Source of the DNA: a virus
Taxonomy: Duplodnaviria; Caudoviricetes
Strand: one strand, 5' to 3'
DNA length: 52,144 nt
IMG/VR virus record: IMGVR_UViG_3300043435_000349
Span: 1-52,144 of that record
The notes beneath the pieces are model-generated. The model searched no databases. It was not told the origin of the DNA and saw only the letters and a list, made by a program, of their open reading frames with translations. Numbering within the stretch: the first letter of the stretch is position 1; every line of letters starts with the position of its first letter. The translations under genes and the position numbers were made by a program. This document shows, in pieces, positions 12,977-38,920 of this stretch.

Positions 12977-14595
12977 AGCTTCCTCTCCAAGATTCTAACA
13001 AACCCACGCTCACCTACTTCCCCCACCTTAATGTCACAAGCAGAAGCAATGTAGTATTTCCCACAATTAGACAAGACAGGCTCATCTTTATGTAGCTTAA
13101 CATTTCCACAAACATCCAATGTAGCCCACCCAAAACAGAGAGGGGCATTGTCAAAGATATGTCGATTGAATGTGTTCATTTCATATCTCCGGCGGATGTG
13201 TTTCCTTGAAGCTCTTTGATGTATTCATACAGGCAATCGATCTCATCCCAGTGTTTTTCATTACAGTGCTTGGCTGCCTCAGCGTAGTCATCAAACTCCT
13301 GTTCGTAACGACCAAACAATTCACGCACAACCCAAGTGCTTCGCTCAATCCGCTCAATGGTGTATTTCATTCTGTAGTCCCATCCATTCTGTTAATCCAC
13401 TCAAGAAGTGTGGATTTCACGTTTGCATTTCGTTCTGTAAAATCCCTACGAGCCTGCTCAACCATTGCTTCTGAAATCTCGCTGTTTGGAATCCTGACAA
13501 TAGTTGCAACCTCAATGTAACCACACATTGGTAGCCTATCTGTCCAGAATACAGAAGCATCAACAGCATCTTTGATTGCTTCGTCCATTGTGGATCGTTC
13601 GTCTTGCATGATCCCCGTGTCCCATGCCTTGTATTTCATTTCTCAGCCCTCAATTCTTCCAACTCTTGCTCCAGCTTTTCAACCTTACATTCAAGCTCAA
13701 AACATTTGTCCTCAAATTCTCCAGCCTTATCTTCCCAGTAATCCTTATCGGATTCCATTTCATCGAGGTCTTCCCGCAACATCTGTTGAGCGGTTGCTTC
13801 CTGTTCTAAAGCATCTTCCAATTCCTCAAATTTCTGAGCGATGCTGTCAAGCAATAGCCCAAACTCATATTGGCAATCTGGGTGGGCTGATATTGCATCC
13901 AAGAGCTTGATAGGCTCTGATGTCAGCATAGCCCAAGAAGCGATGGTTGATAGTGTGAACATGGCTTTCTCCAAAACGATTTGATAGGCGGATACTAACT
14001 AATGCCGCAGTGTATTGTCAACACCATTTCACCACACTTCTCTAAAATAGTTAGACTCGTACCACTCACTAAAAATACCACCAAGCCTGTAGAAGTTTCT
14101 TCCTTGTAGGTGGCGACGCTCAACCACCTCATATTTCTTACCAACAATTAGTTTGTCATACCAACCATCACCACCACCCCCATAAACCACTTTGGTGGTG
14201 ATGTTGCTTAAAGATAACACTTCTGCAAATGCAGTATTCTCAAAAGAAATGCGGTAGGGTTTTCCTTTATGGAATACAGATGCAAAGAGGATGCCTTCAA
14301 ATGGGTAGAGATCTGCGCCAACAACAATTTCTCCGTACAATGGATGTCCTTCCTTAACAACCATGATTGTGTCACCACGACCAAAGCCATTGGTGAGGGT
14401 CGGCTCTAAATCTTCGGGGTCATACCAGTTGAGTGACCTTTCTGTTCTTACGCCAACAGCAAGACTATCAACCCCGTCAATAATTGATAGGGCTGAAATG
14501 TGTCCATCTTGTTGTGTCGCGCTCACTGTCACACAAAGGCCAACAACAATCAAATCACGATTCATTTCTCTCTCCATTAACAAGAACAGCCCCAA
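12973..14595 (-). other. Five small hypothetical CDSs (12973-13179, 13176-13370, 13367-13639, 13636-13974, 14029-14595)
   Basis: The first four are coupled by 4-nt overlaps; 13636-13974 has an acidic coiled-coil tail. Confidence 0.6.
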
Positions 14596-14641
14596 TTGTA
14601 AGGGCTGTTGTGTGGGGTTGTCAAGTATTAAGAACAGAAAA

Positions 14642-15292
14642 TCACGGGGTGATTTCCCAATTCATCAAAGACTCATAAACGGCTGGCCTCAAGACATCTT
14701 TGTATTGATTGGCTACAGCTTTGATGTATGCTTCCTTTGCTGTCTTGTATGCCATTGATGTTTGTTCCACACTTGGGTATTGACCAACAGTGGTAAGTTT
14801 TCCACCAACTCTGATATGCCCCTGAAATGAGTTGTCTCTCCTGTTGTAGCTTACCCCATTGGGCAGCCCATTGTGGAGGTCATCGCAGCCTACAATCAAT
14901 GAGTTGATTGCTTGCGGTACTAATGCACATGTTTCTGCGGAATATAGTTTTCTGCCACGCCCAAGAATGTCTTTGTCAAGTTCAAGACCATAAGGCTTGC
15001 CGGAATACTCAACCTCTCCGTTTATCCACTGCAAAAAGCTGGCAAATGAAAGCCAATCATCCGAACATGTAACATCCAAATATCTCGGATACTTTGCCTT
15101 GAACCCATTGTTAAAGCACCTGTGAAGCATCGACAGCCACAACACATATTGCCAACAGTTTTTTCCCTCATCGACCCATATTTTGAAGTTGACATCGTTA
15201 TAACCATGACCCTGAACTGTCGGTGGAACAACCCTACGCTCAACACTCACCAACTGATCAATCTCAGCCTGACTAAGTTTTAACTTCTTCAT
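14642..15292 (-). CDS. HNH-like homing endonuclease with AP2-like C-terminal domain
   Basis: W..ML.RC...Y...W..F..F..W...LDKD...YS.ETC..VP..IN motif, then GVSY...F...I...G.Y. Confidence 0.75.
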   Translation of the reverse strand: MKKLKLSQAEIDQLVSVERRVVPPTVQGHGYNDVNFKIWVDEGKNCWQYVLWLSMLHRCFNNGFKAKYPRYLDVTCSDDWLSFASFLQWINGEVEYSGKPYGLELDKDILGRGRKLYSAETCALVPQAINSLIVGCDDLHNGLPNGVSYNRRDNSFQGHIRVGGKLTTVGQYPSVEQTSMAYKTAKEAYIKAVANQYKDVLRPAVYESLMNWEITP

Positions 15293-16518
15293 AACCCCTC
15301 CAACCATTCTCTCAAGAGTTTTTCCATCCTACTACTAAAAATGCAAACGTGCATCACTTCCCCATTACGGATACACCCACGCCATAGCCACTGAATCATC
15401 TCTGACAATGCAAACACATCTGTCTTGACGGGACAATCCCAATCTTGTAGGTAGGATGCCACAGCAACATTAGTATGCCGATTATAACAATGCATCATAT
15501 GTGTAACATGTGCGTGGTCGTTTGTCGCCCTTGTTGATGCAGCAAGCCAGCAGGGAAGTCCATTAGGCTTGATTGTATAACCAACAGGCTTAATCTTCTC
15601 ACTCTTTGCGGCAGATGCACAAGACCTGTATTTAGGGAACGTGTACAACACATTTTCCGATGACACGCCCCAATTCCGGCATGCCCTCAATATGGCGTTC
15701 TTAACCACATTCAGATCACCTTTCATCGGATTCATGTACCACGAATAGGTGAGCTTGTTCCGAAGATTGAAATTCTTAGGTGGTGGGGTGACCACTAATA
15801 GCTCACGCATCTTGTCGCCACAAATCCTCTGTAGTGCCAAAGGCTCTGCAAATGGGATGCTTGTAAACCCTTTGAGCTTGAGGAAGCTGTCTAGGATGTT
15901 ACCCTCAAACAAATAGGTGAGGATGATTACACGCTTCGCACTCTCAAGCAGCTTTGATGGTAGTTGTACAGTGAGCATGGTGTCACTACGCTTGGTTGTG
16001 TACAAACACCCACTATTGCACATCTGACGCAATCGGTAGTATTTATGAGAAGGACAGGCCACCTCAACAGACTGATTCACCCATTCAACCATGCCATCAT
16101 TCTCACCGATCTTGATGAAGCCTTCTTTGATCAACCACTTTAAATCCTCAATTGAATAATCATTGAATGCTTCAATCAGACCAATTTCCTCATCCACCAC
16201 GACAATGTAATCGTGTTGTTGAATGGCTTCAAAATGCTCATCAGTCATCAGTTTGTATAGGCTGTGTGTGCATGACACATTAGCACCAGCTTTCAGAAGC
16301 TCAAGCATAGCACCACTCTTACCTTCACCACTATCTTCTGGTGAATGGAACTCAACATTTCTGACAGCCTGATGCAGTCTACCACCACTCTCAACCTCAC
16401 TCAATAATGGTGACACATAGATATACCTCTGGTGGTAGTTGGCATCAATCCACTTGATGATGCTGCTGCTCTTACCAGACCCCATGATGCTATCAACAAT
16501 CTCAACAACCTTTCCCAT
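15289..16518 (-). CDS. SF2 (DEAD-like) helicase-related protein, putative origin-binding/replication protein
   Basis: Walker A DSIMGSGKS, YVSPLLSE, TH, VVDEE, RATN and QWLWRGCIR. Confidence 0.75.
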   Translation of the reverse strand: MGKVVEIVDSIMGSGKSSSIIKWIDANYHQRYIYVSPLLSEVESGGRLHQAVRNVEFHSPEDSGEGKSGAMLELLKAGANVSCTHSLYKLMTDEHFEAIQQHDYIVVVDEEIGLIEAFNDYSIEDLKWLIKEGFIKIGENDGMVEWVNQSVEVACPSHKYYRLRQMCNSGCLYTTKRSDTMLTVQLPSKLLESAKRVIILTYLFEGNILDSFLKLKGFTSIPFAEPLALQRICGDKMRELLVVTPPPKNFNLRNKLTYSWYMNPMKGDLNVVKNAILRACRNWGVSSENVLYTFPKYRSCASAAKSEKIKPVGYTIKPNGLPCWLAASTRATNDHAHVTHMMHCYNRHTNVAVASYLQDWDCPVKTDVFALSEMIQWLWRGCIRNGEVMHVCIFSSRMEKLLREWLEGL

Positions 16519-16519
16519 A

Positions 16520-17760
16520 CCAACCTCTCAACCTGATTTGGGGCATATCATACACAACTACAGAGCATGGTATTGTTTCTTTATGTAACCGAAATCAACC
16601 ACAGCTAACTGGTGAAATTATTACTGGAAATGTTTAGATCATTTAGGACTCTATCTATAAGCAAAAAGGTAGAAAACTTTATACATTCAATAAGTTACAC
16701 AACAGAACGTAAAGCGTTTCTTTTACCTAATACACCAATATACCATATATGTCATGTTGACATGACGGACAATTACACACAAGAAGATAGTAACAATGTT
16801 GTGTTGACACAACAGAAGTAATGGCTGGGTTAAGGGGACGCAGTCGCCCTTGCTGGGCGGCCAGTGCCGATTCTGTTTAAACATTCAAAAAGAAAACTAA
16901 AATCTTTTCCTGCCCTACAGGACTACTACTATGTGTCACCACATGAGAGATAACATTGTTGTGTTCCACAACAGCATGGTCATGTTGTAGGGCATGTTGG
17001 TCATGTGTACAGGCAATGCCTGTGATTAAAAGCAAGAGCAAAAGATCTTTTTTATTATTAAACAAGCCTACTGTAATAACACAACAGGTATGTGTGGTCA
17101 TGTGCCATGACAGAGGTGTTATCACCTTAGTGTCCCACTAAGAGATGGTCTGTTGTGTTGTCCCAAACGCAAGGCATTTGGGTGTAGTGTTACTACCATG
17201 ATGTACCATCATGTGATAAAGAATTGTGTAAACACAATGTAAACGATGAAATCTTGTGTGAATCAAGACGTGTCATATACATGACACAAGAGAATGTCCT
17301 TATGTGTTTGTTTCTTCTATGATGTTCCATCATGAGTTAGGTGGTTGTTTTTGTGTGTCACAAAATTGTGTTGGTGATGTTGTTGCTCGGCAACAGAGGT
17401 GGTGTCATTCTGACAGGATGTTGTCACTGTTGTGTTCCACAACGCTGGTAGTGATTGCAGCTTCGCTGCCTTCTTGTTGCCACCTAGAAGCAAGCTTCTG
17501 TGTTTCTGTTATTGTTGTAAGCTGTTGTTCTGTGGGGAATGAGGGTAGTGGGGATGGAAATCTTGTGGGGGTGTGGGGTCTGTGGGAATGCTGTTCTTCT
17601 GTGGTAGTGCGGTTCTTTTTGGTGTGGATCTTATTTTGTTATTGTTAGTTCTGTTATTGCCATTTAGTTCTTGACAAATCCCATAAAGATTTACAATGGA
17701 GCATGTACAGGTGTTGACTGTTGTTGTTTGTTCTGGTAGAGTGGTGGTTTAAATCTGGAG
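16520..17760. other. Long intergenic region, putative replication origin 1
   Basis: No credible ORF; lies at a strand-divergence point. Has a 26-bp element shared with 36790-36815, an IHF-like site and repeated hairpins. Confidence 0.45.
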
Positions 17761-17767
17761 AGTTGTT

Positions 17768-18421
17768 ATGGGTAAGTTGAAGTTGTCACAACAGGAAATT
17801 GACCAGTTGGTGCTGGTGGAGCGAGTGGAGAGGAAATCTACAGTGTGTGGCGTTGGAGTTGTTGATGTGGTATTTCAACCCTCAATTAGAGGGAAAGTTA
17901 TCTGGCAATACGAGCTATGGAAGGGTGTTTTGAGGAGATGTTGCTCGGAAAAACTTAAAGCAAATCGACCTCACTATCGGGAGGCATCTATTTGTACGGA
18001 TTGGCTGTCTTTTGCAACGTTTTTCGAATGGGTCAATCTGGAGGTTGGGTACAAAGGAAAGCCTGTTGGGATGGAATTGGATAAAGACATTCTCGTTAAG
18101 GGAAATAAGGTTTATTCACCGACTACCTGCTGTTTTGTCCCATCACGGATCAATAAGCTATTGACCGACAGAAGATCACATCGTGGTCAATATCCTATTG
18201 GTGTAACGTTCAATAAAACAGGTGGTCGCCTAGCGGCATCCTTAAATTGTAATGGTGTGGATGTATTTCTAGGTTTGCATGATACACCAGAGGCTGCTTT
18301 CTTAGCCTACAAGACAGCAAAAGAGTCTTATGTTAAGGAAGTCGCAAATGAATACCGACATGCCCTCACATCAGAAGCATACACCGCACTGATGTCTTGG
18401 GAGGTGGATATTTCTGCTTAG
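17768..18421 (+). CDS. HNH-like homing endonuclease with AP2-like domain (paralogue of 14642-15292)
   Basis: Same motifs (LDKDIL..GNKVYSPTTCCFVP..IN) and a near-identical N-terminus KLKLSQ.EIDQLV.VER. Confidence 0.75.
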   Translation: MGKLKLSQQEIDQLVLVERVERKSTVCGVGVVDVVFQPSIRGKVIWQYELWKGVLRRCCSEKLKANRPHYREASICTDWLSFATFFEWVNLEVGYKGKPVGMELDKDILVKGNKVYSPTTCCFVPSRINKLLTDRRSHRGQYPIGVTFNKTGGRLAASLNCNGVDVFLGLHDTPEAAFLAYKTAKESYVKEVANEYRHALTSEAYTALMSWEVDISA

Positions 18422-19073
18422 CCAAACAAAAGGCAAAGATAAAACAGGGCGGGGGTGGTTGTTGAACATGGCATCTTTTACTTGTCATCAATATTAACCA
18501 TCCACCGCCCCATTTACAAGTTGTTGCTCTGGTAGTGGTGATCTGTGTACCAATGCGCTTTGTCAAACCCGCCCACCTATATCTATGGTTGGGAAGTTAC
18601 AGTTTTCTGATGTAAACTCCCATCAAACAGAAACGCACTGTCTCGCGATGGTTTATTGTAGGAAGGCTGTAGTGTATTCTCAGAATAAGCCAGACATTGG
18701 TTGTGATTATTTATGTCAATAAAATAAAAACATCCTGTGGTCTTTGAGAATTTCTGTAAAAATTTTATACCCCGAGCAAAAAAAGTTTTCAGCCCTATAT
18801 AGGAATTCCCTAGTCTTTACAATCTAAATCCTTTTTGAGAATTGCTCTCATTTCGTTTTAAATCATATCTACCGTTTATCTGGTTTTTCTGCCGTTCATC
18901 ACCTGCCTATTGCTTTTGATGCTGGTTGTGGTATAATCGACCACTTTTGAGATACCACAGCTAACAACTTTTAGCAATGGCTTTCCTGACAAATTACAAA
19001 ACTTTATTTTTATTTTGTAACTCCTATTGACAAGCCATGCCGATCTGTGGTAGCAGACAAAATCATAAAGTAA

Positions 19074-19212
19074 AGCAACAATCATGCCAACTATAAACAT
19101 GGCATGTTCCTTGCATATCATGCAACTTCTATGCCAATCTCAATATTGGCACGTCTATTGCATGGCCTAGAATTCTGGCATGAACATTGCATATATGCAA
19201 TCAGTGTGCCAA
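19074..19212. promoter_or_regulatory. Array of six sigma-54 (RpoN) -24/-12 boxes
   Basis: Six TGGCA-N6-TTGCW 17-mers at 19074(-), 19099(+), 19121(-), 19146(+), 19175(+) and 19196(-). Confidence 0.75.
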
Positions 19213-19514
19213 TGTCTAAGAATCTGGTTTGTCAACTATTTGCCGACGAAATGAGTATGATCCGATGAACGGCATAAAACAAGCTATTTTCGCCACTTGT
19301 CGGAAAATAAAGATATTGGTATTGACTTTCTAAGTTGGCATGTATTGTGCATATGTTCTATCGAGCTTGCTCGAATATCATAGTGATTGTTGTTTGTCAA
19401 TCTTTTTCTGATGAGTGGTAAATAACAGGCTCGTCCGGTGATTGTCTCCACCGAGTGCCAGTGCTGTCGCTAATATAGCTCGTCCGAGGGACGCTGTCAA
19501 CATGTTTAAGAAAT

Positions 19515-19538
19515 AAAAACCGCCAATAATGGCGGCTA
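19515..19538 (-). terminator. Terminator after 19555-19869
   Basis: CCGCCA-ATAA-TGGCGG hairpin with a T-tract on the minus strand. Confidence 0.6.
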
Positions 19539-19554
19539 GTGTAGTCTGGTGATT

Positions 19555-19869
19555 CTAGGCTTTTTCATAATAAACAAAATTCTCTAAGTCGATACCAAAG
19601 CTGGTTACAATCACGCCGGACTCCAAGGCGCGTATATCGGTATAACCGGCAATTTTCCGACCGTCTTCTAGTGTAAAGATAAACCGGCTAGAAGGTTTTG
19701 TGTTGTCACTTGTGGCCTTTACAATCCGAACGACCTTCATTTTAACGCCTTTTTTGATTGAGCTGTTGCCAGTGAATTTTTTGGCACAGCTCCAGCCATA
19801 TGGCTTATTGCCGACAAATACAGGGGCAGACACTTCAGCTTTGCAGCAAGAACATAGGATGGTGGACAT
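19555..19869 (-). CDS. Hypothetical early protein with Cys motif (CxCC...GWSC)
   Basis: GGAG RBS, its own TTGCAT/TATAGT promoter and a terminator. Confidence 0.65.
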   Translation of the reverse strand: MSTILCSCCKAEVSAPVFVGNKPYGWSCAKKFTGNSSIKKGVKMKVVRIVKATSDNTKPSSRFIFTLEDGRKIAGYTDIRALESGVIVTSFGIDLENFVYYEKA

Positions 19870-20153
19870 TGCAGTCACTCCAAAAAAGATACACCGGATC
19901 TGGTGCGTTAAGGCCACTATATAAGACTAATGTGCATCATGCAACTATTTGCCGACGAACGGCAACCGAGGGACAAACAAAACCGGATAAATCAGGCCGG
20001 AACATAGTCCTATATGCTCCCCATTTGCCGTATACGCTTTTTAAATGCAATCGGGTAGGGTAGCCCCATGATCAGGCTAAACAGGCGTATAACGCAAAAT
20101 AGGAAGGACAATAAACAGGCTAGAAATGTTCTAAATCTTTTTGCTTAATAGTG

Positions 20154-20182
20154 TTGACAAGCATATTCAGATGGATAATAAT
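20154..20182 (+). promoter_or_regulatory. Strong sigma70 early promoter
   Basis: TTGACA-N17-TAATAA(T) upstream of the AGGAG RBS of the 20235 gene. Confidence 0.7.
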
Positions 20183-20234
20183 GGCTTCAACAGAGGCGGA
20201 CTGTCCCGCTCAATTTTGAATCAGGAGTTACACC

Positions 20235-20576
20235 ATGGCCACTATCGTGCGTATCGTTAAAACATCTTTGTGGACTGCTTATATTGTTGCTGGTAAAGTG
20301 ACATTGGCTAAAGATGCAAAAACTGGCCGCTTCATTAAGCGTAACCTTGTACAGATGTTCATCGACACATTAGCCGCTCAAGCTGTTTTGAGTGTACGTG
20401 GTTACAATAACAGCTTTAATGCCATTGCTAAAAAAGTGCTTAACGTGCCTAGCTTCTTTAGTGACAAACTTTGTGTACTGTTGTTCACCAGCAACACTCT
20501 AACAGATAGCGAGATGCGGTCGGTAGTGCGTGACTGTCAAAACGCTGGTTACTATACGGACATGATTGCCGCATAA
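20235..20576 (+). CDS. Hypothetical early protein, paralogue of 23381-23692
   Basis: Shared N-terminal GK..LAK.AK.G..IK....Q...D.LA..A motif. Confidence 0.7.
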   Translation: MATIVRIVKTSLWTAYIVAGKVTLAKDAKTGRFIKRNLVQMFIDTLAAQAVLSVRGYNNSFNAIAKKVLNVPSFFSDKLCVLLFTSNTLTDSEMRSVVRDCQNAGYYTDMIAA

Positions 20577-20592
20577 CGTTTCACGTGAAACA
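20577..20592. promoter_or_regulatory. parS-like ParB-binding palindrome
   Basis: CGTTTCACGTGAAACA matches TGTTTCACGTGAAACA at 15 of 16 positions. Confidence 0.7.
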
Positions 20593-21170
20593 TCATAGCC
20601 TGTCACGTCTAACAGGCTAGACACAAAGATACAAATATCTTATTGCCTTATCATGTGAATCATGGTAGGGCTTTTTCGTCTATTTGTCAGCCTTTCCATT
20701 AGACGTGTTTGGTGTTTGTCTCCCCAGTCATGCCGTGCTGTCCCCACTATAACTAATTTACCTATATTGTGTCAACAATAAGCCGACAAACGGCAACCGA
20801 GGGAATCAGCACCGAGACGGGTAGCCCCAGCTATAAGCCAGTAGCCCCAGAACGCTCTGGTTTGCGTTATACGCCGTTCTATTCGAGTCTGGTACAAACA
20901 TACAGGCATATAGGCTGGAAAGCCGTATACGACAATTTAGCTTTTTGAACAAATAATTGTTGACAATGTACTACCTGTATGCTACGCGCATACGCGCATA
21001 CAAATAAGACAAAACATAGCATCGAAAATAAATGCAAATAATTTAATAAAACGCTTGCATCATGTTTTTGTTTTGGATATAGTGGCTCTACCGGCTAGAG
21101 ACGATCTAGTGGGCAGTTAGACAAGGCAACAGACTAGCCTAAATAGTCGATTTTGAATACAGGTGCAATT

Positions 21171-22859
21171 ATGGCATTTTTAACAGTTAAACATTCAATC
21201 AGCAAGGCACAAGACACCTGCGGCTACAATCGTGTAACTCTGATTGATCAATCAACGGGCAAGCGTTATACATGTGTCGGTGGTGGATACGATATGCTAG
21301 GCACGTGCCTAGGTCAGTATTTGCAAGCTAATCACCAAGTGGAGTTGCTTGGTTTAGTTTGTCGTGCAAAGCAAGCGGTGACATTTGATGCTGAATCAAA
21401 CCGCTATCGGTTTACTGATAACCCTGTTAGTAGTGCGCTTTATGGCTTAACCTACAATGCAAAGCTTAACGCTATGCAATTGGACGGAGGCTGCGGTTTT
21501 GAATGTATGGTACGGATAGCGCGTGCAGCCGGTTTGACGGTGAATCTTCACCACGACAAGAAAGGCCGTTTGATCAATCTTTTTGTGGGGTGAATCATGC
21601 AGCTTGTCGGTTATGTATGCATCACAAGCAAAGGTCGATATAAGTATGATCGGCAATCAATGGAAAAAGCTTGTCGGCAATATGGCAAGTCTGGTTTATA
21701 TGAATCTGATTGTTTGTGGATTATTAAAGTCTGGAACAATCAGGGTAAGAGTGGCGGTTATTGTTACAAACCAGTCTATCGCTAGAATGAAACATAGGCA
21801 AGCTATCACGCCTCAAGTGATAGCATTTTTAAGGAGGGACATATAATGTCCAACATGGCACAACCGAAGGTAATTGAGCTAACGCTCGACGATGTAGGGT
21901 ACAATGGCGTAACCAAGCGTGACGTGGGCAAGCTGATGCTAGTATGGCCTAATGGTTGTACAGACATTATTAGCAAGTATGAGCCGATTAATCGTAATTG
22001 GCTAGGACATGTGATTTATGAGAATGGCGGGCGTTATTCACACCACCACAAAAATGATGATGGCGATTTAGTGTTTTACTGTGACATACTACCGGATAAT
22101 GTTGCTGCATTATTCCCGCAAGCCATTGTTATAAGCCGTGGCGATTATGTCAGATCTAAGCTGGTATTTCCCAAAAATACTAGGCTCAAGACACTACGCA
22201 CAACATACAAGGGGGTAAGATTGTATGCCTAAGCTATGGTTATATCGCTACCCTTGCGGCAAGATTGGCTACTTTATTGGGATTCACAAGGTGGCCACAA
22301 AAGTTACTGGTAAGCTCGACAAGCGCAACAAATATGTCATGTTGAATTGTCACCGTTATCAAATAGGCGGTTGGATCAATGGGTAACCTCCTAGCCTTTT
22401 TGTTTTGGTTGTCCCTTTTTTCTTTAATGTTTTGGAGTGTTTAAGATGGATTATCTAACGAATCAGGAGCTTGCTGCATTTAATGCAAGCCAGAAAGTAG
22501 TACAAGCCGGATCTGTTGCCTTTAATGGCTATGTATTCACAGGGTACGATGCACGAGCCTACAATGCTTATTTGTATGACTTAAGCAAAGAACGCCACAA
22601 GCCGACAAGGGATTTTCTGCTTGATCAACGTCACCGTCTTTTTTGCTTAATCATTGGCATGGTAGGAGTGTAAAACATGGCTACACAATTTAGCGTAAGA
22701 CGCAATGTATACTACGCAGGCATGTTAGAATCATCGGACATTGTAGCGTCTGGTTTTGAATCGTACACAATGGCTGACTATGCATGCTACACTATTGCAA
22801 ACAACAGCCAATGTCTGTTAGAGTTTAAAGGTTGCCATATTGTTTTTAGTGTGGTGTGA
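21171..22859 (+). other. Early operon of small hypothetical CDSs (21171-21593, 21597-21785, 21846-22232, 22437-22673, 22677-22859)
   Basis: RBS-preceded ORFs downstream of TTGACA and TTGCAT promoters at about 20960-21085. Confidence 0.6.
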
Positions 22860-23040
22860 AGGCTGCACCCACCCCCACGATTCACAAGGCAAGCGTATAG
22901 CCTTTTTAATATGCGCATTTTTGGTGTGCTGGTGTTTATAGGTTTGAACGCACAAGCATGGGTAAGGTCTACCGTGTGCAAGTGGGATTCTTTGAGTTGA
23001 GACAGCACCCAATACAGGACATTTACTAACACAATCAATT

Positions 23041-23064
23041 AAGCCCCTTTACTGGGGCTTTTTT
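23041..23064 (+). terminator. Rho-independent terminator
   Basis: AAGCCCC-TTTACT-GGGGCTT followed by TTTT. Confidence 0.8.
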
Positions 23065-23071
23065 ACGTCTA

Positions 23072-23088
23072 TGCAAAAGCAATGCCAA
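23072..23088 (-). promoter_or_regulatory. Sigma-54 -24/-12 box
   Basis: Minus strand reads TTGGCATTGCTTTTGCA. Confidence 0.6.
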
Positions 23089-23380
23089 CTTTAAATGTCA
23101 AGTATTATTTGAAAAATGGCCTATGCCTCTAAATGCGCATAGAATCGCGTATACGCGCTTGTTTGCCTTTCTGGTACAAGTGGGTTAGAACATTCCCAGA
23201 GGGGCATTAGAGGCGAAATTACCGTTCATCGGGAAAACTTGACATTCTAAAAAATACATGGGTGAGAATTATGTTCTAATTGTCCGACGAACGGTAGTTG
23301 TGTCTAAAGCCACAATGTAGCATAATAGCTTCACCAAGACGGCAAACGGTGCTTAGTCTGGTAATAGTGAGTGAGACGAA

Positions 23381-23692
23381 ATGGCAAAGTTAGCGAAGGT
23401 AGTAACCAGCAAAATGATCATTTGGGCAAACAATGGCAAGGCTATGCTTGCAAAATGCGCCAAGTCTGGTAAATGGATCAAGTTAGATGATGCACAATGG
23501 CTGCTGGACAATTTAGCACTATTGGCTTGTAAAGCCTTTAGTAAATCAGCAAGCGTGACACAATCAACACAAGCGGCTATTGAGTTTGACAAGACAGTGG
23601 CATTTTTTGGTGTGGTCGGTATTTGGTCGAATGTTCGTGGATGCAACCAGCCCACTGCATATCTAGCCAAACTAGCACTGACTAGCAATTAA
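23381..23692 (+). CDS. Hypothetical early protein, paralogue of 20235-20576
   Basis: Shared N-terminal motif; CATAAT -10 upstream at 23321. Confidence 0.65.
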   Translation: MAKLAKVVTSKMIIWANNGKAMLAKCAKSGKWIKLDDAQWLLDNLALLACKAFSKSASVTQSTQAAIEFDKTVAFFGVVGIWSNVRGCNQPTAYLAKLALTSN

Positions 23693-23950
23693 TGAGATGC
23701 ACAATGGACAAGACAAAAGCAGCAATCAAATACGATGTTTTAAACTTGAATTACCTTGTCAATGCATTAGATAGTGGTGCGATGGACAAACCAGAAGGAG
23801 TTGTTTAATGGAAAGCCAAGCTGTTGAGATGTTAAAACTGCTAATGCTAGCCCTTGATCGCGGTCATGGTGAAGTATGGCAAGTGAGATGTACAGAGGAA
23901 TACCAGAGGGTTGAACAGTGGATGCTAGACAATATAGAAGATGACTAACA

Positions 23951-24026
23951 AGTTCCACGCGGAACAATTGCCGCCGATCATGGCGGCTTTTGTTTGCCCG
24001 CTGTTTACTATGTTCCACGTGAAACA
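23951..24026. promoter_or_regulatory. Two parS-like palindromes flanking a terminator hairpin
   Basis: AGTTCCACGCGGAACA (23951-23966) and TGTTCCACGTGAAACA (24011-24026), with GCCGCC..GGCGGC-TTTT between them. Confidence 0.7.
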
Positions 24027-24308
24027 ATGGCGGCATAGGGTCAGGCGGCTAGGCGGGCTATTGTCCGACAATAATGCCGGTTAATCGACCAGCTCGACCC
24101 AATGCCGTAGAATCGCACAGAATCGCTTGTATGGCGTTTCATGGTCAAGGCATCGAATCAGGCTAGTGGCGGCTATGGGGCGGTATAGCGTGCATCCTAC
24201 GATATTACATAATGTGGTTTGAAGGGGTGCGTCAGGGGTGCGCCGTGATAAACAGTAGAATAGATAGATTTCAAAAACTACATAAAGTGACAGCCCCATA
24301 GACAGGTA

Positions 24309-27300
24309 CTACGTCAGCACCTCAACACACCCAACACACCCCTCAGGACGCCGCTTCTTCATGTAGCTCTTGAGAGCCTTAATGCCATCTTCTGACAACT
24401 TTTCTTTTATCTCCCAACCACAGCCATTACGCACAACAACAGAGTTGCCATCATTGTGGCAAATGAATAAAGCCCCATCTTTCCACACAACACTATTCAC
24501 AATCACCCTCGATATTTTCCTCAAATGAAATAGCCCCTCAAATGAAAAGAGGGGTATTCCAAAAATAATTTTTACCAAATTTGATAACATGGAAACATTT
24601 AATTGTTTAAATTAAATATCACCAATAGCATCCAAATCCTCATTCACATTGTTGACGCTTGCTGTCAGCAGATTCAACAACACAGGGTCAATCATCATTG
24701 CACCCCAATCAACTTTCAACCCATACCTACCGCCACATTTAATGGTTGAGAAAGATTTGGGTGACGTACTGGACGCAATAGGCAAGCCAAATTTGTTCTC
24801 AGAAATCTTGTCAAAACCAAGCTCATTCAACTGTCGGACATACCGAGAGGATAATATTGAATTATTCATACATCCCTCTCCATCTCATACTGCCTGTTAA
24901 GCTCATCCACTGTAGAGCAGATAAGACGTAGTTGGTCGTAGCAGAATCTGGTTGAGCTAGTCTGTGGGTTGGCACACCACTCACCCCATTCTGGGTCAAA
25001 ACAGAATTCCGCCACCCTCAATGCTGATACGTCTGTCTTTTGTTGTAAACACCAACCACTACCCCTTTCCTCAATCCACATGTCATACTTCTTAAACTCT
25101 TTGTTGAGCCACTTCTTTGCGTGAAACACTTTCATCGAAATTCCACCCCGTTCAACATGCTGATAATCAAGATTGCCGCCATTAACAATGCGATACAAGA
25201 AGCTGTCTGCAACCTACCAAAATGGTAGCATGTCACAGATGCCCCTGCAAGCATATAGATAACATTCGTAATAAATTCCATCACAATTCTCCGTAACACC
25301 TGTTGGATCTTTCAATAATAGCTTTCTTGCGAGTGGCCAACTCAGTGCGCTTCCTGTCACTGTACGAATCAACCACGTCGCATACCTTCTGAACATCCAC
25401 TTGCGTAAGACCAGACAAGTGATGCTGGATTATCACCTCTTTGCAACCAAGCAATATTGTCATATTGCTAATACAGTCGTATGTCAACATCTCACACCCA
25501 AGAATGTACCACTTATCTTCAGTAAGCACCTCCATTAAACCCTCTAGCTTTTTCACCCAACGCTTTCCTTCTGTTCAAAATCTGGTTGATGTAGAGCGTA
25601 GTCAATGAAGCATTTCAGCACAGCTTCTACGGGACAATTGCTCAACCCCATGTACACTTTTTGGCAATCTGCCATCCAACGCTTCTCAAACAGGTTGTTG
25701 ACACTAATCTTGTAGTCAAACACCAGATCAAACACCATCTCGTGATGTCCACGTCGCCACACAGGATATTTGTTTCCAGTGATACGCTCATATTCACTAC
25801 ACGCTTTGTTCAAGAGCTTTTCAAACTGCAATGAATCAGACATGTTGATAGCTCCTAGAAAGATAGTTGAGTGTGTCGGCGTAGAGGGAAAGCACAGATG
25901 GAATCATAAAATACCTATCAGCACCTTCATCTGCTGCAATCCAAACATCGCCACACCTCGCAAATGAGAAAACACAGGTCATACTGTCAATCTCAAATAC
26001 ACCAACACTATCCTCGCTCATCTCAATCAATCTTAGAGCATGCTCTTTATAACGTAGCAACATCTCACCACTAAACTTAAAATAATTGTACATCACAAAC
26101 CCCCCGCATCAACAGATGTCCACCTGCGCCACTTTCCACCAAAATAGGAAGCACCATTCTCTAAATCCTCCACCCACACGTCAACGTGGTTAGCACCCCC
26201 GCCAAATATCTCCCAGAGTCCATCCTCTATTTGCTCTGATGTGCCCGTCTCAATCCATTGGTATTCCTCACCATCTCGCACCACCTCAAACAGCCAAGTC
26301 TTATGATCATCAGACATCAGCATTCTCCATTTCAACAGCATCCACCTGAAGGCTATACCACTCACGAAAAGAGCTATGATCACTCTCATCATAGTAAGCG
26401 TTCTTGGCGTAGAATGTCCCACCTGTGTAAGCAGCCAAAACAATGCCTGTTGTCTTGGGGTGACAGAGCTTGCGAAGAAGCTCTAGCTTTTGTTTGAATG
26501 TTGGCTTGTCTTTCGTCACTAGCACAGGGCGGGAATGTGTATGACATTCCCATGTGTCCCCTGATGTTGCCACAAATGATGTTACATAAACAGAAGGCAT
26601 GTTATTCTCCAATACACACAAGCTCAAAATGAACATCAGCCCATTTCTGACCCCTGCTCACTTCCCAAGACATATCTCTAACAAACCGCACAGCCACAAA
26701 CCCCTGACCATCAAGACACAGTGACACATCAAACAAGACATCTTCAATGCTTGGTTTCGTGTCGTAAGTTTGCCATGCAAATTTGTCACTTCTTGGGACT
26801 AAGACCCCCTTCCCCCACACACGAAGCTCGTGCTTTGTCATAATCACCCCTCACGCTTAGTTAGCTCATCCCAACCCACCACTACACCAAACACAGCTTC
26901 TGTCAGAGTGGATGTCTCAAAAGAGAAACCCCTGTATTTCGCAACCCATAAATCAGGCTCACTGAAATAACTAACACCAACCTTCAGTGAGTTAATCATA
27001 TGCGCCGCAAGATGCAATGGCTGTAGCTCATCAGTGTATGGCAACACAACAGGAGCTAGACGCTTGTAAGTCTGTAGAGCCATCTTGTGGTTTTTCATAC
27101 TGCCCTCCTCCTGAACCCAACTACCCCAAAGCTTACCGTAATAAGCTCTGTTGCACTAATCACTACTGTTGACATCTTAATCTCCAAGCCTCTGTTGAAT
27201 CACTTGTAACAACATACGCAACCCTGTGTCATCAAGGTGAATGTCTGCGCTGTTCTCGCCACTTCCGTAATCCTGAGAAACCCTTAGATTCCAACCAATG

Positions 27301-28565
27301 TCATCTTTTACAATACTCACCCAACCCTCAAGCCCAACACCATGAGAATAAATCCCGTATTCTGTCTTTCGGGTCTCGCACTCAGGTGGATGGGTCACTG
27401 TAGCAAGTTTTGCAGCATACAGCCACTTCTGAACATCTTGCTCACTCCACTTTTCCATGATCAGACCCTACTATCCCGTACTAGATACTTGCCCTTCCCC
27501 AACAACTGGTCACACGTCTGCTGGGCATAACTACGATCATGTGTAGACATCCAAAGATCATGTCCTGCCGCACTACGGACATAATAGCGAGCATTACGCT
27601 TGTTGTCATTCAGGTTGATGAAGATGTTGTTGAATGTGATTTCGCCTTTGCCTTCGATCAATGCACGATTGATGTCTTGCTCGTTGGTTGTTGCCAATGC
27701 TTTCATGCTGTTTCCTCTGTAGATTCGATTACCGTCTGTTGCATTGTATTCAATGCTTCAAGACATGGCTTAATGTACTTGATGCTTGCCTCTGTGTCAA
27801 CATTTAAATACGCTTGATCATACTGAAATCCATATGAGCCATCTTGTTGACCAATGAAGCGTCCAATTACGGGCTGGTGTGGTTGTGAGCCGTCTGTAAG
27901 ACATAGCTTTTCTGTGTCCAGTCCAATTGCTGTTCCACGAACAGCTTTCAGGATAGCTGCGTGAGCTTTTGGGCTAATTTCCATCATTCACCTCAATAAA
28001 TTTTGCCTTTTCTAAATCTTCGCAAACAACAGCATTCATTGCGTTCAGAAGACGGCAGATGTCAATCAGGTCACTGTAGCGGTAATCACTATCACTACAT
28101 ACTGGCTTGGCATGAAACTCGCCACAATAAATTCCGATTTCCCAACATGCTCGATTATAGCCATTCTCAGGAAAGTGAATCTCCAAGAACATCTTATCTC
28201 TGTCGAAATCAACTTCCCAACCACTTACGCAACGCTCAATCGTTTCAGCAGACAGCCTATCATAAACAGACCGAATGTAGCTGACTCCGCTGCTAGTTTC
28301 AATTTCCATAAACACTGTCCCCATTCAGTAGTTTCAATGTGCGATACACAAGCCCGAAGTAATGCTGGTGTTGAAAACCACCATTACCAGCCCTGTCCCA
28401 TACACCCCATTCGTACCCATCGTGCAAGATCTCAATGGAGCAACTTCCGCCATAATTCAAACCAATGACGATCTGCTGTTTATCCCAATCAAATTTGTGG
28501 CTTACGTTCCACCACTCAGACCAAATGGATTCTATTTGCTGCTCCAGCTCTAGCTTTGTCATTGT
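24309..28565 (-). other. Cluster of about 14 small hypothetical CDSs
   Basis: Contiguous, mostly overlapping minus-strand ORFs of 80-116 aa (e.g. 24309-24590, 24612-24869, 24866-25198, 25281-25556, 25553-25843, 27177-27458, 27461-27706, 27974-28324). Confidence 0.6.
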
Positions 28566-28579
28566 GATATCAGTCACTG

Positions 28580-29272
28580 TCAACCTCCGATCATACCATT
28601 CAAGACAAGCCATGCGCTTGCAGCCACAAGAGGTACTTGTCCGTTTCCAAGAGCTTTAAGTCTGTCCACCCTGAAGGCCACCCCATCAGATACTCGAAGT
28701 TGTTCGGGGTAGGTTTCCCAAACGCCGTTACGAAGTTCCTGCAACTCTTGTGTTTCTGCATACTCGGTGCTGCGAAGTTTGCAATAGTCGTCGGTGTATG
28801 CAAGAAGCCAAAATCTGTCCCGTTCATGGTCTGCACCAACGTCTTTCGCTGAAAGTTTTGTATGCAGACACCTGTAACCCTCTTGCTCAAGGTCTTTCTT
28901 TGCCAATAGTATGGCTTTCTCGGATACGTTTTCAGCAAAGACTGCTCTAGGGCATACCTCTCGGACAACCCTGTACATTTCTGCCCAAAGGTCTTTTGAA
29001 GCAATGTTTCTACCTCTTGCCGCAGCAGAGAATGCTTGACAGGGGAATCCTCCAGAAACCAAGTCCACAGTTCCTTTCCAAGCCCTTCCATCAAACGTAC
29101 AGATGTCGTCCCATATCGGGAAACTTCCAATTGAGCTTCGTTCGTTTTGCCGTTGAATGAGAACTTCGATGCAGTATTGATCTCGTTCCACAGCGCAAAC
29201 AATGTTGTGTCCGAGGATATTACTTGCAAGTATTCCTCCACCACAACCCGCGAAAAGTGCCAACTCATTCAT
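28580..29272 (-). CDS. DNA (cytosine-5) methyltransferase, catalytic chain
   Basis: Motif I LFAGCGG, IV GGFPCQ, VI ENV, VIII HERDRFW and X LGNG. Short (230 aa), with no evident TRD or motif IX. Confidence 0.9.
   Translation of the reverse strand: MNELALFAGCGGGILASNILGHNIVCAVERDQYCIEVLIQRQNERSSIGSFPIWDDICTFDGRAWKGTVDLVSGGFPCQAFSAAARGRNIASKDLWAEMYRVVREVCPRAVFAENVSEKAILLAKKDLEQEGYRCLHTKLSAKDVGADHERDRFWLLAYTDDYCKLRSTEYAETQELQELRNGVWETYPEQLRVSDGVAFRVDRLKALGNGQVPLVAASAWLVLNGMIGG
28600..29268 (-). CDS. Nested alternative-frame ORF, putative second methyltransferase subunit (TRD/motif IX)
   Basis: 222-codon frame entirely inside the MTase gene. C-terminal P..FEYLMGWPSGWT resembles motif IX. Confidence 0.6.
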   Translation of the reverse strand: MSWHFSRVVVEEYLQVISSDTTLFALWNEINTASKFSFNGKTNEAQLEVSRYGTTSVRLMEGLGKELWTWFLEDSPVKHSLLRQEVETLLQKTFGQKCTGLSERYALEQSLLKTYPRKPYYWQRKTLSKRVTGVCIQNFQRKTLVQTMNGTDFGFLHTPTTIANFAAPSMQKHKSCRNFVTAFGKPTPNNFEYLMGWPSGWTDLKLLETDKYLLWLQAHGLS

Positions 29273-29535
29273 ACATCCTCCAAAACAATACTACCGCCCG
29301 CATACTCATTATAGCCTAGCGAGTTGACAATTATAGTGTGACGACCCTTTCCTACCACAAAAGCCGTCAAACCGTTAATTACGCTTGCCGTCTTTCCAAG
29401 CATTGAGTAACCACCCTTCAACCTTGACTCAACAACACATCTTTGCTCATTACTGATAAAAACCAAACCCTCAAGCATCACTACCCCCAATCCATTCAAC
29501 AAACCCAAGATCATAAAGCTGTTTCTCTGTTGCAA
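29269..29535 (-). CDS. Hypothetical protein
   Basis: ORF coupled to the MTase start; exact start codon uncertain. Confidence 0.5.
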   Translation of the reverse strand: MQQRNSFMILGLLNGLGVVMLEGLVFISNEQRCVVESRLKGGYSMLGKTASVINGLTAFVVGKGRHTIIVNSLGYNEYAGGSIVLEDV

Positions 29536-29962
29536 GCTGCAAAATCACCTTCCTGTAACGCTCTGCATTGTCCAACCACTTCCCACCCTCACGGATAGAC
29601 TCTCGGTAGTTGAATGTTACATCTGCAATCTTAACAACCCTTGCTCGTTGGCTGCCGTATCTGTCAATGATATCAATATATTCCTGATAGCGAGCTTTAC
29701 CAAGATCATTAGTGAGCATCAGTATGTCGTCAGCAATATCCCACTTGAATAGGCCACAGAGGGTCTTGTAGGTCATGTTGGTGTCCTCGCAATTATCATG
29801 ACACAATGCCACAATGTGCGTACCTTCCTCCTGAACACCAAGCTCATGTTGCAAGATCCCCAAAACACCAAGAATATGGTGATGGAAATAGTCCTTGTCA
29901 CCATATTTCTGACCAGCGTGTAGACGCTTTGAAAGCTCATACGCAAATGTTGCATCGTTCAT
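29471..29962 (-). CDS. HD-domain protein, SpoT/Mesh1-like small alarmone hydrolase family
   Basis: H.GQKY...Y..H...V, LCHDNCEDT, LT and VKIAD...N motifs. Confidence 0.8.
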   Translation of the reverse strand: MNDATFAYELSKRLHAGQKYGDKDYFHHHILGVLGILQHELGVQEEGTHIVALCHDNCEDTNMTYKTLCGLFKWDIADDILMLTNDLGKARYQEYIDIIDRYGSQRARVVKIADVTFNYRESIREGGKWLDNAERYRKVILQLATEKQLYDLGFVEWIGGSDA

Positions 29963-30044
29963 AAAGCATTCCTCCGTTTCTGTTGAAGCCATTATTGACC
30001 AAACAAAACAGCATGTCAACATATTTCTTTTATTCAGACAAATA

Positions 30045-30080
30045 AAAAGGGAAGCTGCAATTAAGCGGCTTCCCTTCTTC
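30045..30080 (-). terminator. Rho-independent terminator
   Basis: AAGGGAAGC..GCTTCCCTT hairpin with a T-tract on the minus strand. Confidence 0.7.
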
Positions 30081-30740
30081 TTAGCTCAACAACTTTGGTG
30101 GAACAACATCAGAGTCGTCCTGTGCTGCACGTTTCTCAAGACGCTCAATAACCTCGCTACCAAGCATCCAAAACTCCTTCCCACAGAAGAATTGCTCAAG
30201 CTCTTTGTCTGACAAGAAGCCAGAATAGATGTCTGTCATCAATTTCTTGTGTGCGTGAGTTTCGAACTCTACATAAGCAGCTAGGTCAGATGCCTTGCCA
30301 CCAACACCCCAAGAGCTTTGTTCATGAATCATGAAGCGAGCATTCTCACACACTGTATGGCTATGACAACTCAAGAACAATGCACTACCACCAGACATAG
30401 CTGTAGACATCAATGTCCCATGCACATGAGCTTCTGTCATCGCCATCGCATTCAGGATAGCAATAGTTGTGTCTACGCTACCACCATTGGTTGCAAACAC
30501 AATCTCAATGAAATCCCCTTGCCCAGCATCAGCCAAGAAATCAAGAAGCTCTCGATACTCACTGACATCGCCAATGTCCCCATCCAAGCGGTAGCGAGCC
30601 TGCACCTTTGAATGCTCTGTCATTGTTAGAGCAGAGGCTTTCTCTGGCACATTTCCTTCCATCAGGAAGTCTAGGTCGAGGGCATTGCGCTTTGGCAATG
30701 CTTCACGCTTAGGTGATAGTTTACGCTTCATTTGCTTCAT
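30081..30740 (-). CDS. ClpP-like serine protease
   Basis: TNGGSV, AMSGGS (catalytic Ser), FMIHE and EFW motifs. Confidence 0.8.
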   Translation of the reverse strand: MKQMKRKLSPKREALPKRNALDLDFLMEGNVPEKASALTMTEHSKVQARYRLDGDIGDVSEYRELLDFLADAGQGDFIEIVFATNGGSVDTTIAILNAMAMTEAHVHGTLMSTAMSGGSALFLSCHSHTVCENARFMIHEQSSWGVGGKASDLAAYVEFETHAHKKLMTDIYSGFLSDKELEQFFCGKEFWMLGSEVIERLEKRAAQDDSDVVPPKLLS

Positions 30741-34846: not shown

Positions 34847-34945
34847 CTCTCTCCGTTAAAAGCAATCTTGCTTGGTAAAGCCATATTCCCACACATCAGA
34901 CAGAATGTAAAGCATTTCTTTCATGTTTTTACAAAGAGAATGGCT

Positions 34946-36424: not shown

Positions 36425-36429
36425 ACAAC

Positions 36430-36970: not shown

Positions 36971-36974
36971 TTAA

Positions 36975-38878: not shown

Positions 38879-38920
38879 CACCTTTGTGCTATTCCTTACA
38901 CAAAGACAACATATTGTTAA

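Follow-up and report, generated by a model that had tools for sequence, protein, structure and literature searches.

We describe here a stretch of DNA in an uncultured virus contig, IMG/VR record IMGVR_UViG_3300043435_000349, in which noncoding DNA may serve to bind proteins of the bacterial host. The window that was analysed is this whole 52,144-bp contig, which comes from lake water, is classed as linear and is 56% complete according to CheckV. We propose that positions 16.5-24.3 kb of the window make up a fast-evolving early or terminal module of a myovirus resembling Acinetobacter phages B9 and BS46, and that the noncoding part of this module binds host proteins, a reading to which we assign a probability of roughly 0.45. 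According to this proposal, the module would be, or would directly adjoin, the genome end in the virion, and its noncoding DNA would act in cis as protein-binding DNA. Its 11 short orphan genes lie in small units, each with sigma-70-type promoters in front and intrinsic terminators at the end. An array of six sigma-54-type sites would bind host sigma-54, or its holoenzyme, in non-productive closed complexes. Instead of promoting transcription, the array would work as a decoy or would occlude the sigma-70-type promoters that it overlaps; three parS-type palindromes would load host ParB. An earlier interpretation of this DNA (hereafter the sequence-only reading) had seen in positions 18700-24300 (hereafter the interval) a platform on which RpoN, ParB and AlgR of the host might dock. 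The sigma-54-type and parS-type sites of that platform proved to be real and far beyond chance, whereas the AlgR-type sites are probably a coincidental likeness; its statement that all exact sigma-54-, parS- and AlgR-type matches of the 52-kb contig fall inside the interval was borne out.

Exact matches to the sigma-54-type motif TGGCAY-N5-TTGCW number seven in the window against 0.29 expected, a count reached by 0 of 100 shuffles. Six of the seven are packed into the 138 bp of 19074-19211, and the seventh stands at 23072. The array formed by the six is built of two 40-nucleotide (nt) back-to-back units (GCAA-N5-RTGCCA-N10-TGGCAY-N5-TTGC, at 19077 and 19124, 47 nt apart) and a facing pair; its sites have the GG and GC elements of the consensus at exact spacing and with consensus flanks, and two of them overlap the -35 hexamers of sigma-70-type promoters (19090 on the minus strand and 19146 on the plus strand). 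An RNA hairpin was considered as a reading of the array and rejected in favour of protein binding: the N5 spacers vary, and those of facing sites are complementary neither in the window nor at another viral locus with the unit (L006), so that what is conserved would be a bipartite protein site. No change in the array is seen in a second lake sample: there a piece covering 18921-19567 (X2) has 0 differences from the window and pieces over 17673-20745 differ at 0-3 positions, as compared with 45 differences in 21841-23592 and 20 in 26527-26807, other parts of that sample differing by 2.6-7% in the pieces listed. Such conservation speaks for a function; for 17.7-20.8 kb it would point to strong constraint or else to the segment having been exchanged recently. 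Across two other lake samples, 17.7-20.8 kb is identical or nearly so, and the gene-dense flanks (13000-14700 and 21841-23592) differ by ~2.6-8%, as far as the contig pieces listed can be counted.

The same unit recurs in other phages. Scanning IMG/VR for the 40-nt unit returned 71 loci (L006-L076), many of them with 2-4 units at periods of 43-50 nt, where by our own arithmetic chance would give well under a handful. Clustered by BLAST, these loci fall into 15 DNA clusters (of 51, 5, 2 and 2 members, plus eleven singletons) with G+C contents of 0.34-0.57. Five whole records hold 6, 6, 9, 10 and 14 sites, each set lying in one patch of 120-560 bp, and a reversed-pattern control found 0 in the same five records. 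When the 15 clusters and the window are weighted equally (16 groups), the positions that the search had left free are also biased: 90% have C or T in front of TGG, and TGGCAY is followed by G in 76% and then by a purine in 71%; these match YTGGCACGr, which we take to be the sigma-54 consensus. Among 70 flanking open reading frames (ORFs) at 20 representative loci, no PHROG family is common to different lineages, the neighbours of the arrays including endolysins, small or large terminases, a DNA-binding protein and unknowns. The motif is thus kept among unrelated neighbours, and therefore the factor that it serves would more readily be a conserved host factor than a phage protein; to our knowledge, sigma-54 is the only known protein with a site of the TGGCAY-N5-TTGCW type. 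In bacteria, the same unit was found at 48 loci in 596 Gb, nearly all of them single units, some being plain perfect hairpins and some resembling divergent promoter pairs. Arrays, in other words, are a feature of viral contigs.

We favour the interpretation that such an array would bind sigma-54 non-productively, as a decoy or by occlusion, because its facing sites are too close together, no coding gene lies downstream and neither a phage sigma-54 nor a clear activator came to light. The window, which amounts to 56% of the genome, has no sigma factor or activator family among its ORFs by PHROGs or Pfam, and a sigma-54 DNA-binding domain is found in 0 of 5 records of other array-bearing phages. 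In the same five records there is no clear activator gene, the weak AAA+ matches in one of them coming from a model that also rings in 14 of 14 controls; nor is there a T7-type RNA polymerase, a weak negative given that its model rang in no controls either. The sites could instead be working enhancer-dependent sigma-54 promoters that couple early, possibly noncoding, transcription to a host activator, which would explain why the consensus is matched at constrained and free positions alike. Single units of the same geometry in bacteria are plausibly divergent promoters (Herbaspirillum, Oxalobacteraceae and Desulfobacterium, among the 48 loci), and single units on a 124-kb viral contig (L057) are intergenic and next to genes. 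We nevertheless regard this alternative as quite improbable: besides the want of a clear activator, the -12 elements of facing sites in the window are 4-5 bp apart, which leaves no room for two holoenzymes to move on together, the isolated site at 23087-23072 is directed at a terminator, and no ORF of positive coding score follows any site. This codon-usage log-odds score was derived from 33 confident genes, which average +0.19 per codon, and controlled with 214 wrong-frame ORFs inside the training genes (mean -0.20, maximum +0.07). On the 124-kb contig mentioned above, several single, intergenic units occupy the first 5 kb (L057/L058, G001:C1:1-4900), where they adjoin duplicated small genes.

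The second kind of site is a palindrome resembling chromosomal parS. Compared with TGTTNCACGTGAAACA, which we take to be the 16-bp parS consensus, the window holds a 16/16 match at 24011-24026, a 15/16 match at 20577-20592 and a 13/16 match at 23951-23966, other matches being limited to two sites with 3 mismatches. An exact match would arise by chance in 52 kb with a probability of ~1e-4 (our own arithmetic), and on sequence grounds this one is evidently too exact for chance. The palindromes stand directly after the stop codons of the genes at 20235-20576 and 23808-23948, and beside the terminator at 23970-23987. As the simplest explanation, we infer that host ParB would be loaded on these sites.

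The third line of evidence is the place of the module in the genome. The source phage is a myovirus of ~90 kb and a distant relative of Acinetobacter phages B9 and BS46. Its large terminase is 40-45% identical to terminases of myoviruses of ~90-100 kb, the top match being that of Acinetobacter phage vB_AbaM_B9 and the next-best those of other Acinetobacter phages and of Edwardsiella and Pseudomonas phages. According to PHROGs, the left part of the window encodes thymidylate synthase and ribonucleotide reductase, other genes are those of the large terminase, the portal and the head and tail, and further ones encode two HNH endonucleases, a DNA methyltransferase, ClpP-like and PhoH-like proteins and an endolysin. 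In the B9 record (MH133207.1), the first and last 4,915 bp are identical (100%) and thus form an exact direct terminal repeat. The last gene before the right repeat, AB9_156, corresponds to a gene for a protein of 409 amino acids (aa) in the window (42.5% identity over the full length; homologues in 56 phage records), and 636 bp of noncoding, repeat-rich DNA separate it from that repeat. The repeat contains 11 short plus-strand orphan genes and annotated intrinsic terminators, with a bidirectional terminator ~440 bp before its end, and beyond the left repeat runs a long minus-strand operon with ClpP and PhoH, then endolysin and terminase. The window repeats this arrangement part by part: its module lies between the 409-aa gene and the leftward ClpP/PhoH operon, and comprises a noncoding repeat zone at its left border, short orphan genes on one strand, the plus strand, with intrinsic terminators, and a convergent junction. 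In BS46 (MN276049.1), the same module is found mid-record, with a 1.24-kb gap, 11 short genes and a convergent junction. By gene order, the interval, if extended left to ~16.5-17 kb, is the positional equivalent of B9's proven terminal repeat, and inside the module no protein or DNA similarity to B9 is detectable.

The sequence-only reading had taken the interval for the collapsed terminal repeat or leading end of the genome and had named about twofold coverage as something that would support this. Position and build are indeed as in B9, which lends the terminal-repeat reading indirect support, and the twofold contig depth was not seen. We consider it fairly probable that a genome end lies inside the interval or no more than 2 kb left of it. 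A more tentative notion, which we are inclined to doubt, is that both virion ends carry a copy of most of the interval. The available portions of a paper on phage TaPaz and of another on Acinetobacter phage diversity do not mention termini. A private repeat of B9, TAACACTA/TAGTGTTA, is clustered around the left border of its terminal repeat, with 8 copies between the 409-aa homologue and the right record end (L004 14100-15400, record 88.1-89.4 kb) and 0 copies in the remaining 14 kb of the locus.

Several observations weigh against our proposal, some of them bearing on the genome end and others on the motifs. As for the genome end, depth could be taken from four public runs in 4 studies in the form of assembled contigs only, which makes contig depth a coarse figure. 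In the likely source run it is 7.68 (13000-16935), 9.66 (18265-21376), 7.5 (21369-25480) and 7.33 (25473-30000), so that it is flat over 21369-25480, only 1.3-fold higher over 18265-21376 and nowhere twofold over the interval, these being assembled contigs of a water metagenome and not virion DNA. In virion DNA, a collapsed 5.6-kb repeat should by our own arithmetic have raised 21369-25480 to ~1.7 times its flanks, which is not seen. A metagenome scan with the 409-aa protein returned one short contig (L005), whose protein is 89% identical and whose noncoding DNA is weakly alignable and weakly collinear with the window across the noncoding zone. This contig ends in a 26-nt tail (positions 1-26), presumably of sequencing-adapter type, at the equivalent of ~18.92 kb; nothing of the kind is present at the opposite end of the contig. 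The tail may mark a fixed DNA end, and the repeat would then be shorter and lie left of 18700; it could also stem from one single read. In AM24-type phages, furthermore, the 409-aa homologue has no such module beside it. All this would suit an internal early region, with the genome ends elsewhere or at ~18.9 kb, an alternative that concerns position only, is compatible with any reading of the motifs and in our estimate falls somewhat short of an even chance. It is opposed by the agreement of gene order with the B9 repeat and the BS46 module. Moreover, flat depth does not refute a repeat, because replicating concatemers carry the repeat once per genome, and contig depth in a water metagenome cannot separate these from virion DNA. 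A loose end at 18941 and a joint 18961>27614 in the X1 run were dismissed as noise, given that they apparently belong to the contig of another, more abundant organism (depth 32.9) with two short matches of 21-24 nt, and stretches that lack cover in X2-X4 were given no weight.

As for the motifs, B9, BS46 and AM24 lack all three kinds in the equivalent DNA, and the motifs are thus not a conserved property of the group. The co-occurrence in relatives that the sequence-only reading had looked to is therefore absent from these phages, although the array does recur in many unrelated uncultured ones. No ParA, ParB or partition gene is seen in the window, no ParB family being found among 103 ORFs compared with PHROGs or 60 ORFs compared with Pfam, in 56% of the genome. 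That many arrays stand near contig ends was at first taken to indicate physical termini, an argument that was dropped: in the complete contig G003, where strong sigma-70-type promoters follow the array, the two ends overlap by 93.7% over 443 nt, and such ends are assembly breaks in a variable repeat. In the largest lineage, perfect DnaA boxes (TTATCCACA) occur in twos or threes next to or inside the array, spaced 11 nt apart (19-20 nt in L063; examples are L029, L035, L063 and L074), and the flanks of this lineage contain 43 exact boxes in 255,102 nt where we calculate that ~2 are expected. An array accompanied by DnaA boxes fits a replication origin as well as a decoy.

The array could accordingly consist of the iterons of a replication origin, or be a site of packaging or concatemer processing, that a phage protein binds and whose likeness to sigma-54 sites is incidental or secondary. 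Each of the five records has a single array, whose 6-14 sites are spaced 20-29 bp apart like iterons or centromere repeats; in the largest lineage, perfect DnaA boxes paired at a distance of 11 bp are found no farther than ~200 bp from the array; the array adjoins terminase genes in three singleton lineages (L020, L023 and L048); and at the equivalent place B9 has its own, different repeat (TAACACTA, 8 copies against 0 elsewhere). On the other hand, the same bipartite motif, free positions included, is kept in 15 DNA clusters of differing G+C content and with unrelated neighbours, and phage initiators and small terminases are too diverse to retain one site. The interval contains no exact DnaA box either, the sole exact one of the window being at 38498. 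We therefore think this alternative somewhat unlikely, and continue with non-productive binding of sigma-54 as the preferred explanation of the array.

From left to right, the module and its borders are composed as follows.

15289 to 16518, minus strand: conserved 409-aa gene, the left anchor (PHROG 2467, E 4e-64)
16519 to 17767: 1.25-kb noncoding repeat zone with CACAACAG/CTGTTGTG palindromes and no ORF of positive coding score
17768 to 18421, plus strand: HNH homing endonuclease gene inside the noncoding zone (PHROG 953, E 4e-63)
18422 to 19554: 1.1-kb noncoding zone with an AT-rich segment, the sigma-54-type array and a strong leftward promoter
18740 to 18830: AT-rich A-tract segment, 70% A+T, 3 runs of at least 5 A or T
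19074 to 19211, alternating strands: array of six sigma-54-type -24/-12 elements (TGGCAY-N5-TTGCW)
19336 to 19351, plus strand: sigma-54-type site with one mismatch
19472 to 19500, minus strand: strong predicted sigma-70-type promoter, 11 of 12 positions; the ORFs downstream score negative
19555 to 19869, minus strand: orphan gene, 104 aa, coding score +0.10, GGAG before the ATG
19942 to 19973, plus strand: repeat copy A, palindrome TTGCCG-N5-CGGCAA, between divergent promoters
20154 to 20182, plus strand: predicted sigma-70-type promoter, 11 of 12, before the 113-aa gene
20235 to 20576, plus strand: orphan gene, 113 aa, coding score +0.17
20577 to 20592: parS-type palindrome, 15 of 16, one base after the stop codon of the 113-aa gene
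20746 to 20804: second cassette, with a minus-strand promoter (20775-20746, 11 of 12) and repeat copy B (20773-20804)
21171 to 22859, plus strand: six-gene orphan operon with starts at 21171, 21597, 21846, 22225, 22437 and 22677 and positive coding scores
23041 to 23060: bidirectional intrinsic terminator, matching on both strands, that ends the plus-strand operon
23072 to 23087, minus strand: isolated sigma-54-type site pointing into the terminator (23060-23041)
23148 to 23296: third cassette remnant, with CGTATACG at 23148 and repeat copy C at 23279-23296
23381 to 23948, plus strand: three short genes of 103, 38 and 46 aa, coding scores +0.11 to +0.12
23951 to 24026: parS-type palindrome of 13/16 (23951-23966), intrinsic terminator (23970-23987) and exact 16/16 parS match (24011-24026)
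24309 to 24590, minus strand: last gene of the long minus-strand operon, the right border, in a layout as from B9 AB9_012 onward

As far as 23948, three gaps of 0.3-0.6 kb without coding sequence set the short genes apart, and a final noncoding stretch runs to 24308, where the module converges with the long minus-strand operon. A low coding density had been claimed for the interval, and this was confirmed: 11 likely genes are recognised there by codon-usage score, all other ORFs being negative, and they cover a fraction of 0.499, so that ~50% of the interval is coding. A greedy cover by ORFs likewise gives 0.59-0.65 over 18-24 kb against 0.67-1.0 in every other full 2-kb bin. It is the left border that has to be moved, since the zone really starts not at 18700 but at 16519, with 16519-17767 devoid of any ORF of positive score; over 16519-24308 the coding fraction is 0.443. 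The abundance of terminators was similarly upheld, with terminator-like hairpins at ~3 times chance: 33 were found in 15000-28000 against 10.2 +/- 3.1 expected, 19 of them inside the interval, as compared with 6 against 9.5 +/- 3.1 in a control stretch of equal size (28001-41000). Consensus promoters, said to be many, show a mild enrichment of strong matches without an excess of weaker ones. At 9 of 12 positions, sigma-70-type promoters number 33 against 30.1 +/- 5.6 expected, which is no excess; with a threshold of 10 of 12, however, the window has 22 matches, of which 6 fall in 18400-24310, or 11% of the length, and of its 7 matches at 11 of 12 this part holds 3 (19500 minus, 20154 plus and 20775 minus). 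The flanks of the interval had been described as rich in A-tracts, and both are AT-rich (70% and 75% A+T), the 131 nt of the one having 3 and the 91 nt of the other 2 runs of at least 5 A or T, where the window as a whole has 0.19 per 100 nt; the right flank is largely the 5' end of the gene at 24309-24590 and not intergenic.

In the noncoding repeat zone at the left (16519-17767), 8-mers such as CACAACAG are enriched 17-29 fold, and the plus strand of 17300-17760 is 70% G+T. At the equivalent place, B9, BS46 and L005 also have a noncoding zone of ~1.2 kb or more, each with its own repeats. To the right of the HNH gene, 18744-18828 aligns locally with L005 at a score of 45, collinear with a second match. 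L005 has no HNH gene and is ~610 nt shorter than the window at its position, and the source-run contigs over 17673-18291 have a depth of 3.1-3.6 against ~7.5 around (~40%). The HNH gene at 17768 is probably a mobile, polymorphic insertion, because it is absent in L005 and its contig depth is reduced in the source run. It is one of two paralogous HNH genes of PHROG 953 (17768-18421 and 14642-15307). The 409-aa gene, too, has a paralogue in the window, at 34946-36424 (492 aa); both belong to PHROG 2467, a family of unknown role with homologues in Acinetobacter, Vibrio and Psychrobacter phages and in SPbeta-like Bacillus phages. A further sigma-70-type promoter lies at 19946, and a promoter-like TTGCAT-N17-TATAGT at 21055 precedes the six-gene operon; TTGCAT was ruled out as a phage-specific -35 element, given that the hexamer is common all over the window.

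Part of the module was built by cassette duplication, the cassette consisting of a palindrome repeat, CGTATACG, a promoter, a paralogous gene and a parS-type palindrome or hairpin. The 113-aa gene (20235) and the 103-aa gene (23381) are paralogous (BLASTP 32% over the first 60 aa, E 2e-7), DNA upstream of 20235 is alignable with DNA upstream of 21171, and cassettes A and B are alignable with each other. A 44-nt repeat (D4; 19437-19480 and 20711-20754, 70% alike) spans the -10 element and first transcribed bases of the leftward promoters 19500 and 20775. No coding ORF lies downstream of these two promoters by codon-usage score, and the predicted transcripts from them are candidate small RNAs or leaders. 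The motif CGTATACG, claimed to be confined to the interval, is so indeed, with 3 copies (20029, 20924 and 23148) against 0.09 expected by shuffles and 0 elsewhere in the window.

The same repeats account for the AlgR-type matches. CCGTTYGTC occurs 3 times against 0.30 expected, always in the interval, and resembles what we take to be the AlgR 9-mer core (CCGTTCGTC or CCGTTTGTC). The 9-mer does not occur as a lone box: it is the centre of a 25-32-nt phage repeat with the palindrome TTGCCG-N5-CGGCAA (families D1, D2 and D5), which has been copied along with the cassettes. In a search for the 14-mer of this repeat with up to 3 mismatches, 9 copies were found in all against 1.42 expected, 6 of them in 18890-23296. 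An AlgR binding site was therefore rejected, the likeness being probably coincidental, and since the 9-mer is the core of a cassette-borne repeat, we read it as a phage site of operator type, that is, as a putative operator-type palindrome upstream of leftward promoters.

Cassette duplication accounts for part of the recurrence of the motifs, and a looser GCGTATACGC search allowing two mismatches is barely above chance, with 13 matches where 7.4 are expected, a number attained in 8 of 100 shuffles. One could thus regard all motifs as functionless, having arisen by chance or from the base composition of decayed genes and duplicated stretches. We find this scarcely credible in view of the shuffle controls for the sigma-54-type, parS-type and CGTATACG motifs, the array at 71 loci of other phages and the identity of 17.7-20.7 kb across samples with diverging flanks.

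The module itself has few relatives in databases. When the DNA of the interval was compared with 50,697 records of cultured phages, neither the near nor the distant mode gave a match, and a 341-nt piece around the sigma-54-type array gave a single 35-nt chance match to cultured phages. IMG/VR scans with the 113-aa protein, the 409-aa protein and a 23-nt repeat retrieved no relatives, and one with a 146-aa protein retrieved one distant locus (L002) without any of the motifs. The first gene of the six-gene operon has 21 metagenomic homologues (E 7e-50 to 2e-5). None of the ORFs between 18366 and 27458 matches a PHROG, the 104-aa protein among them, and no Pfam family scores above threshold for any in-region ORF, TDBD reaching 19 bits against a cut-off of 23.6 for that same protein. 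The top score of the 113-aa protein in the ESM Atlas, 0.84, is below a meaningful level. A hidden tRNA cluster or known RNA family in the interval was likewise rejected: Rfam, run on the whole window at the gathering threshold and on 16-25 kb in E-value mode, is empty there, and there is no tRNA. Elsewhere in the window, Rfam recognises an abiF RNA motif (RF03085, 39282-39319 / 39325-39400 segment, 52.7 bits against a gathering score of 37), directly upstream of the window's only tRNA gene (tRNA-Met, CAT) and just before the endolysin gene.

Takeover of the host by phages is usually ascribed to small early proteins. Noncoding arrays for host factors that share the work of takeover would explain half of the module and similar orphan DNA in uncultured phages. 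More generally still, many phages might carry a single dense decoy array for a scarce host DNA-binding protein near their early promoters or genome end, a conjecture that we ourselves consider unlikely. The protein would here be sigma-54, with canonical parS sites for ParB in addition, and in another lineage the array stands next to tandem DnaA boxes. If this were true, the multiplying phage genome would soak up the host factor and so silence sigma-54-dependent programmes of stress response, repair or defence and disturb chromosome segregation or replication initiation, and the array would be a cis-acting, protein-free device of host takeover. Being compact and defined by its sequence, the sigma-54-type array is easy to test. 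Synteny additionally offers a rule for metagenomic contigs of this phage group, namely to seek the genome end beside the 409-aa gene. Our literature search, which covered subscription journals little, found no report of sigma-54-type arrays or host-type parS in lytic phages.

Among known systems, the modules of B9 and BS46 are the closest in layout. They share with the window the neighbouring genes and the succession of parts: a noncoding repeat zone of ~1.2 kb, a set of ~11 short orphan genes on the plus strand together with intrinsic terminators, a bidirectional terminator and lastly the convergence with a long minus-strand operon. The size is similar too, being 4.9 kb in B9. They differ from it in having no similarity inside the module, none of the sigma-54-, parS- and AlgR-type motifs and, in B9, a private repeat. 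The end duplication is known from the B9 record, and the window is likened to it by gene order. We know of no two-step injection in B9-like phages.

The left terminal repeat of phage T5 offers a second comparison and affects the claim that the window holds an undescribed system, which does not stand as such: host-protein docking in terminal phage DNA has already been proposed there in a preprint (10.1101/866236). It describes untranslated repeat regions that are noncoding and packed with repeats and palindromes, that are better conserved than neighbouring genes, that carry 8 DnaA boxes proposed to dock host DnaA and that are split by an HNH gene in some members only (10.1101/866236). T5 and the window have in common repeat-dense noncoding DNA, its better conservation relative to the genes around it, an HNH insertion and proposed sites for a host DNA-binding protein; they differ in the sites, which are DnaA boxes in T5, of which 16.5-24.3 kb contains no exact one, and sigma-54- and parS-type sites in the window. 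T5 is, moreover, an unrelated siphovirus, and its docking model is itself a hypothesis.

The individual sites also have counterparts in bacteria and plasmids. Bacterial sigma-54 (RpoN) promoters resemble the array in the TGGCAY-N5-TTGCW motif, its exact spacing, its flanking bases and the back-to-back geometry, and are unlike it in that the arrays pack 6-14 sites on alternating strands with facing sites 1-5 bp apart. Chromosomal parS is matched by the window in one exact and one 15/16 copy of the 16-bp consensus; unlike in ParABS systems, these belong to a phage of a group whose cultured members are described as lytic and stand after short genes, beside terminators. Origins of plasmids and lambdoid phages with iterons or DnaA boxes, and the sopC array of the F plasmid, are single loci of regularly spaced sites as well, from which the arrays differ by the alternating orientation of their sites, by having no adjacent initiator or partition gene common to the lineages, and by a motif identical with the site of a host sigma factor. 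What is new beside these systems is the kind of site, namely sigma-54-type arrays together with chromosomal-type parS, and a family of such arrays that spans at least 15 phage DNA clusters.

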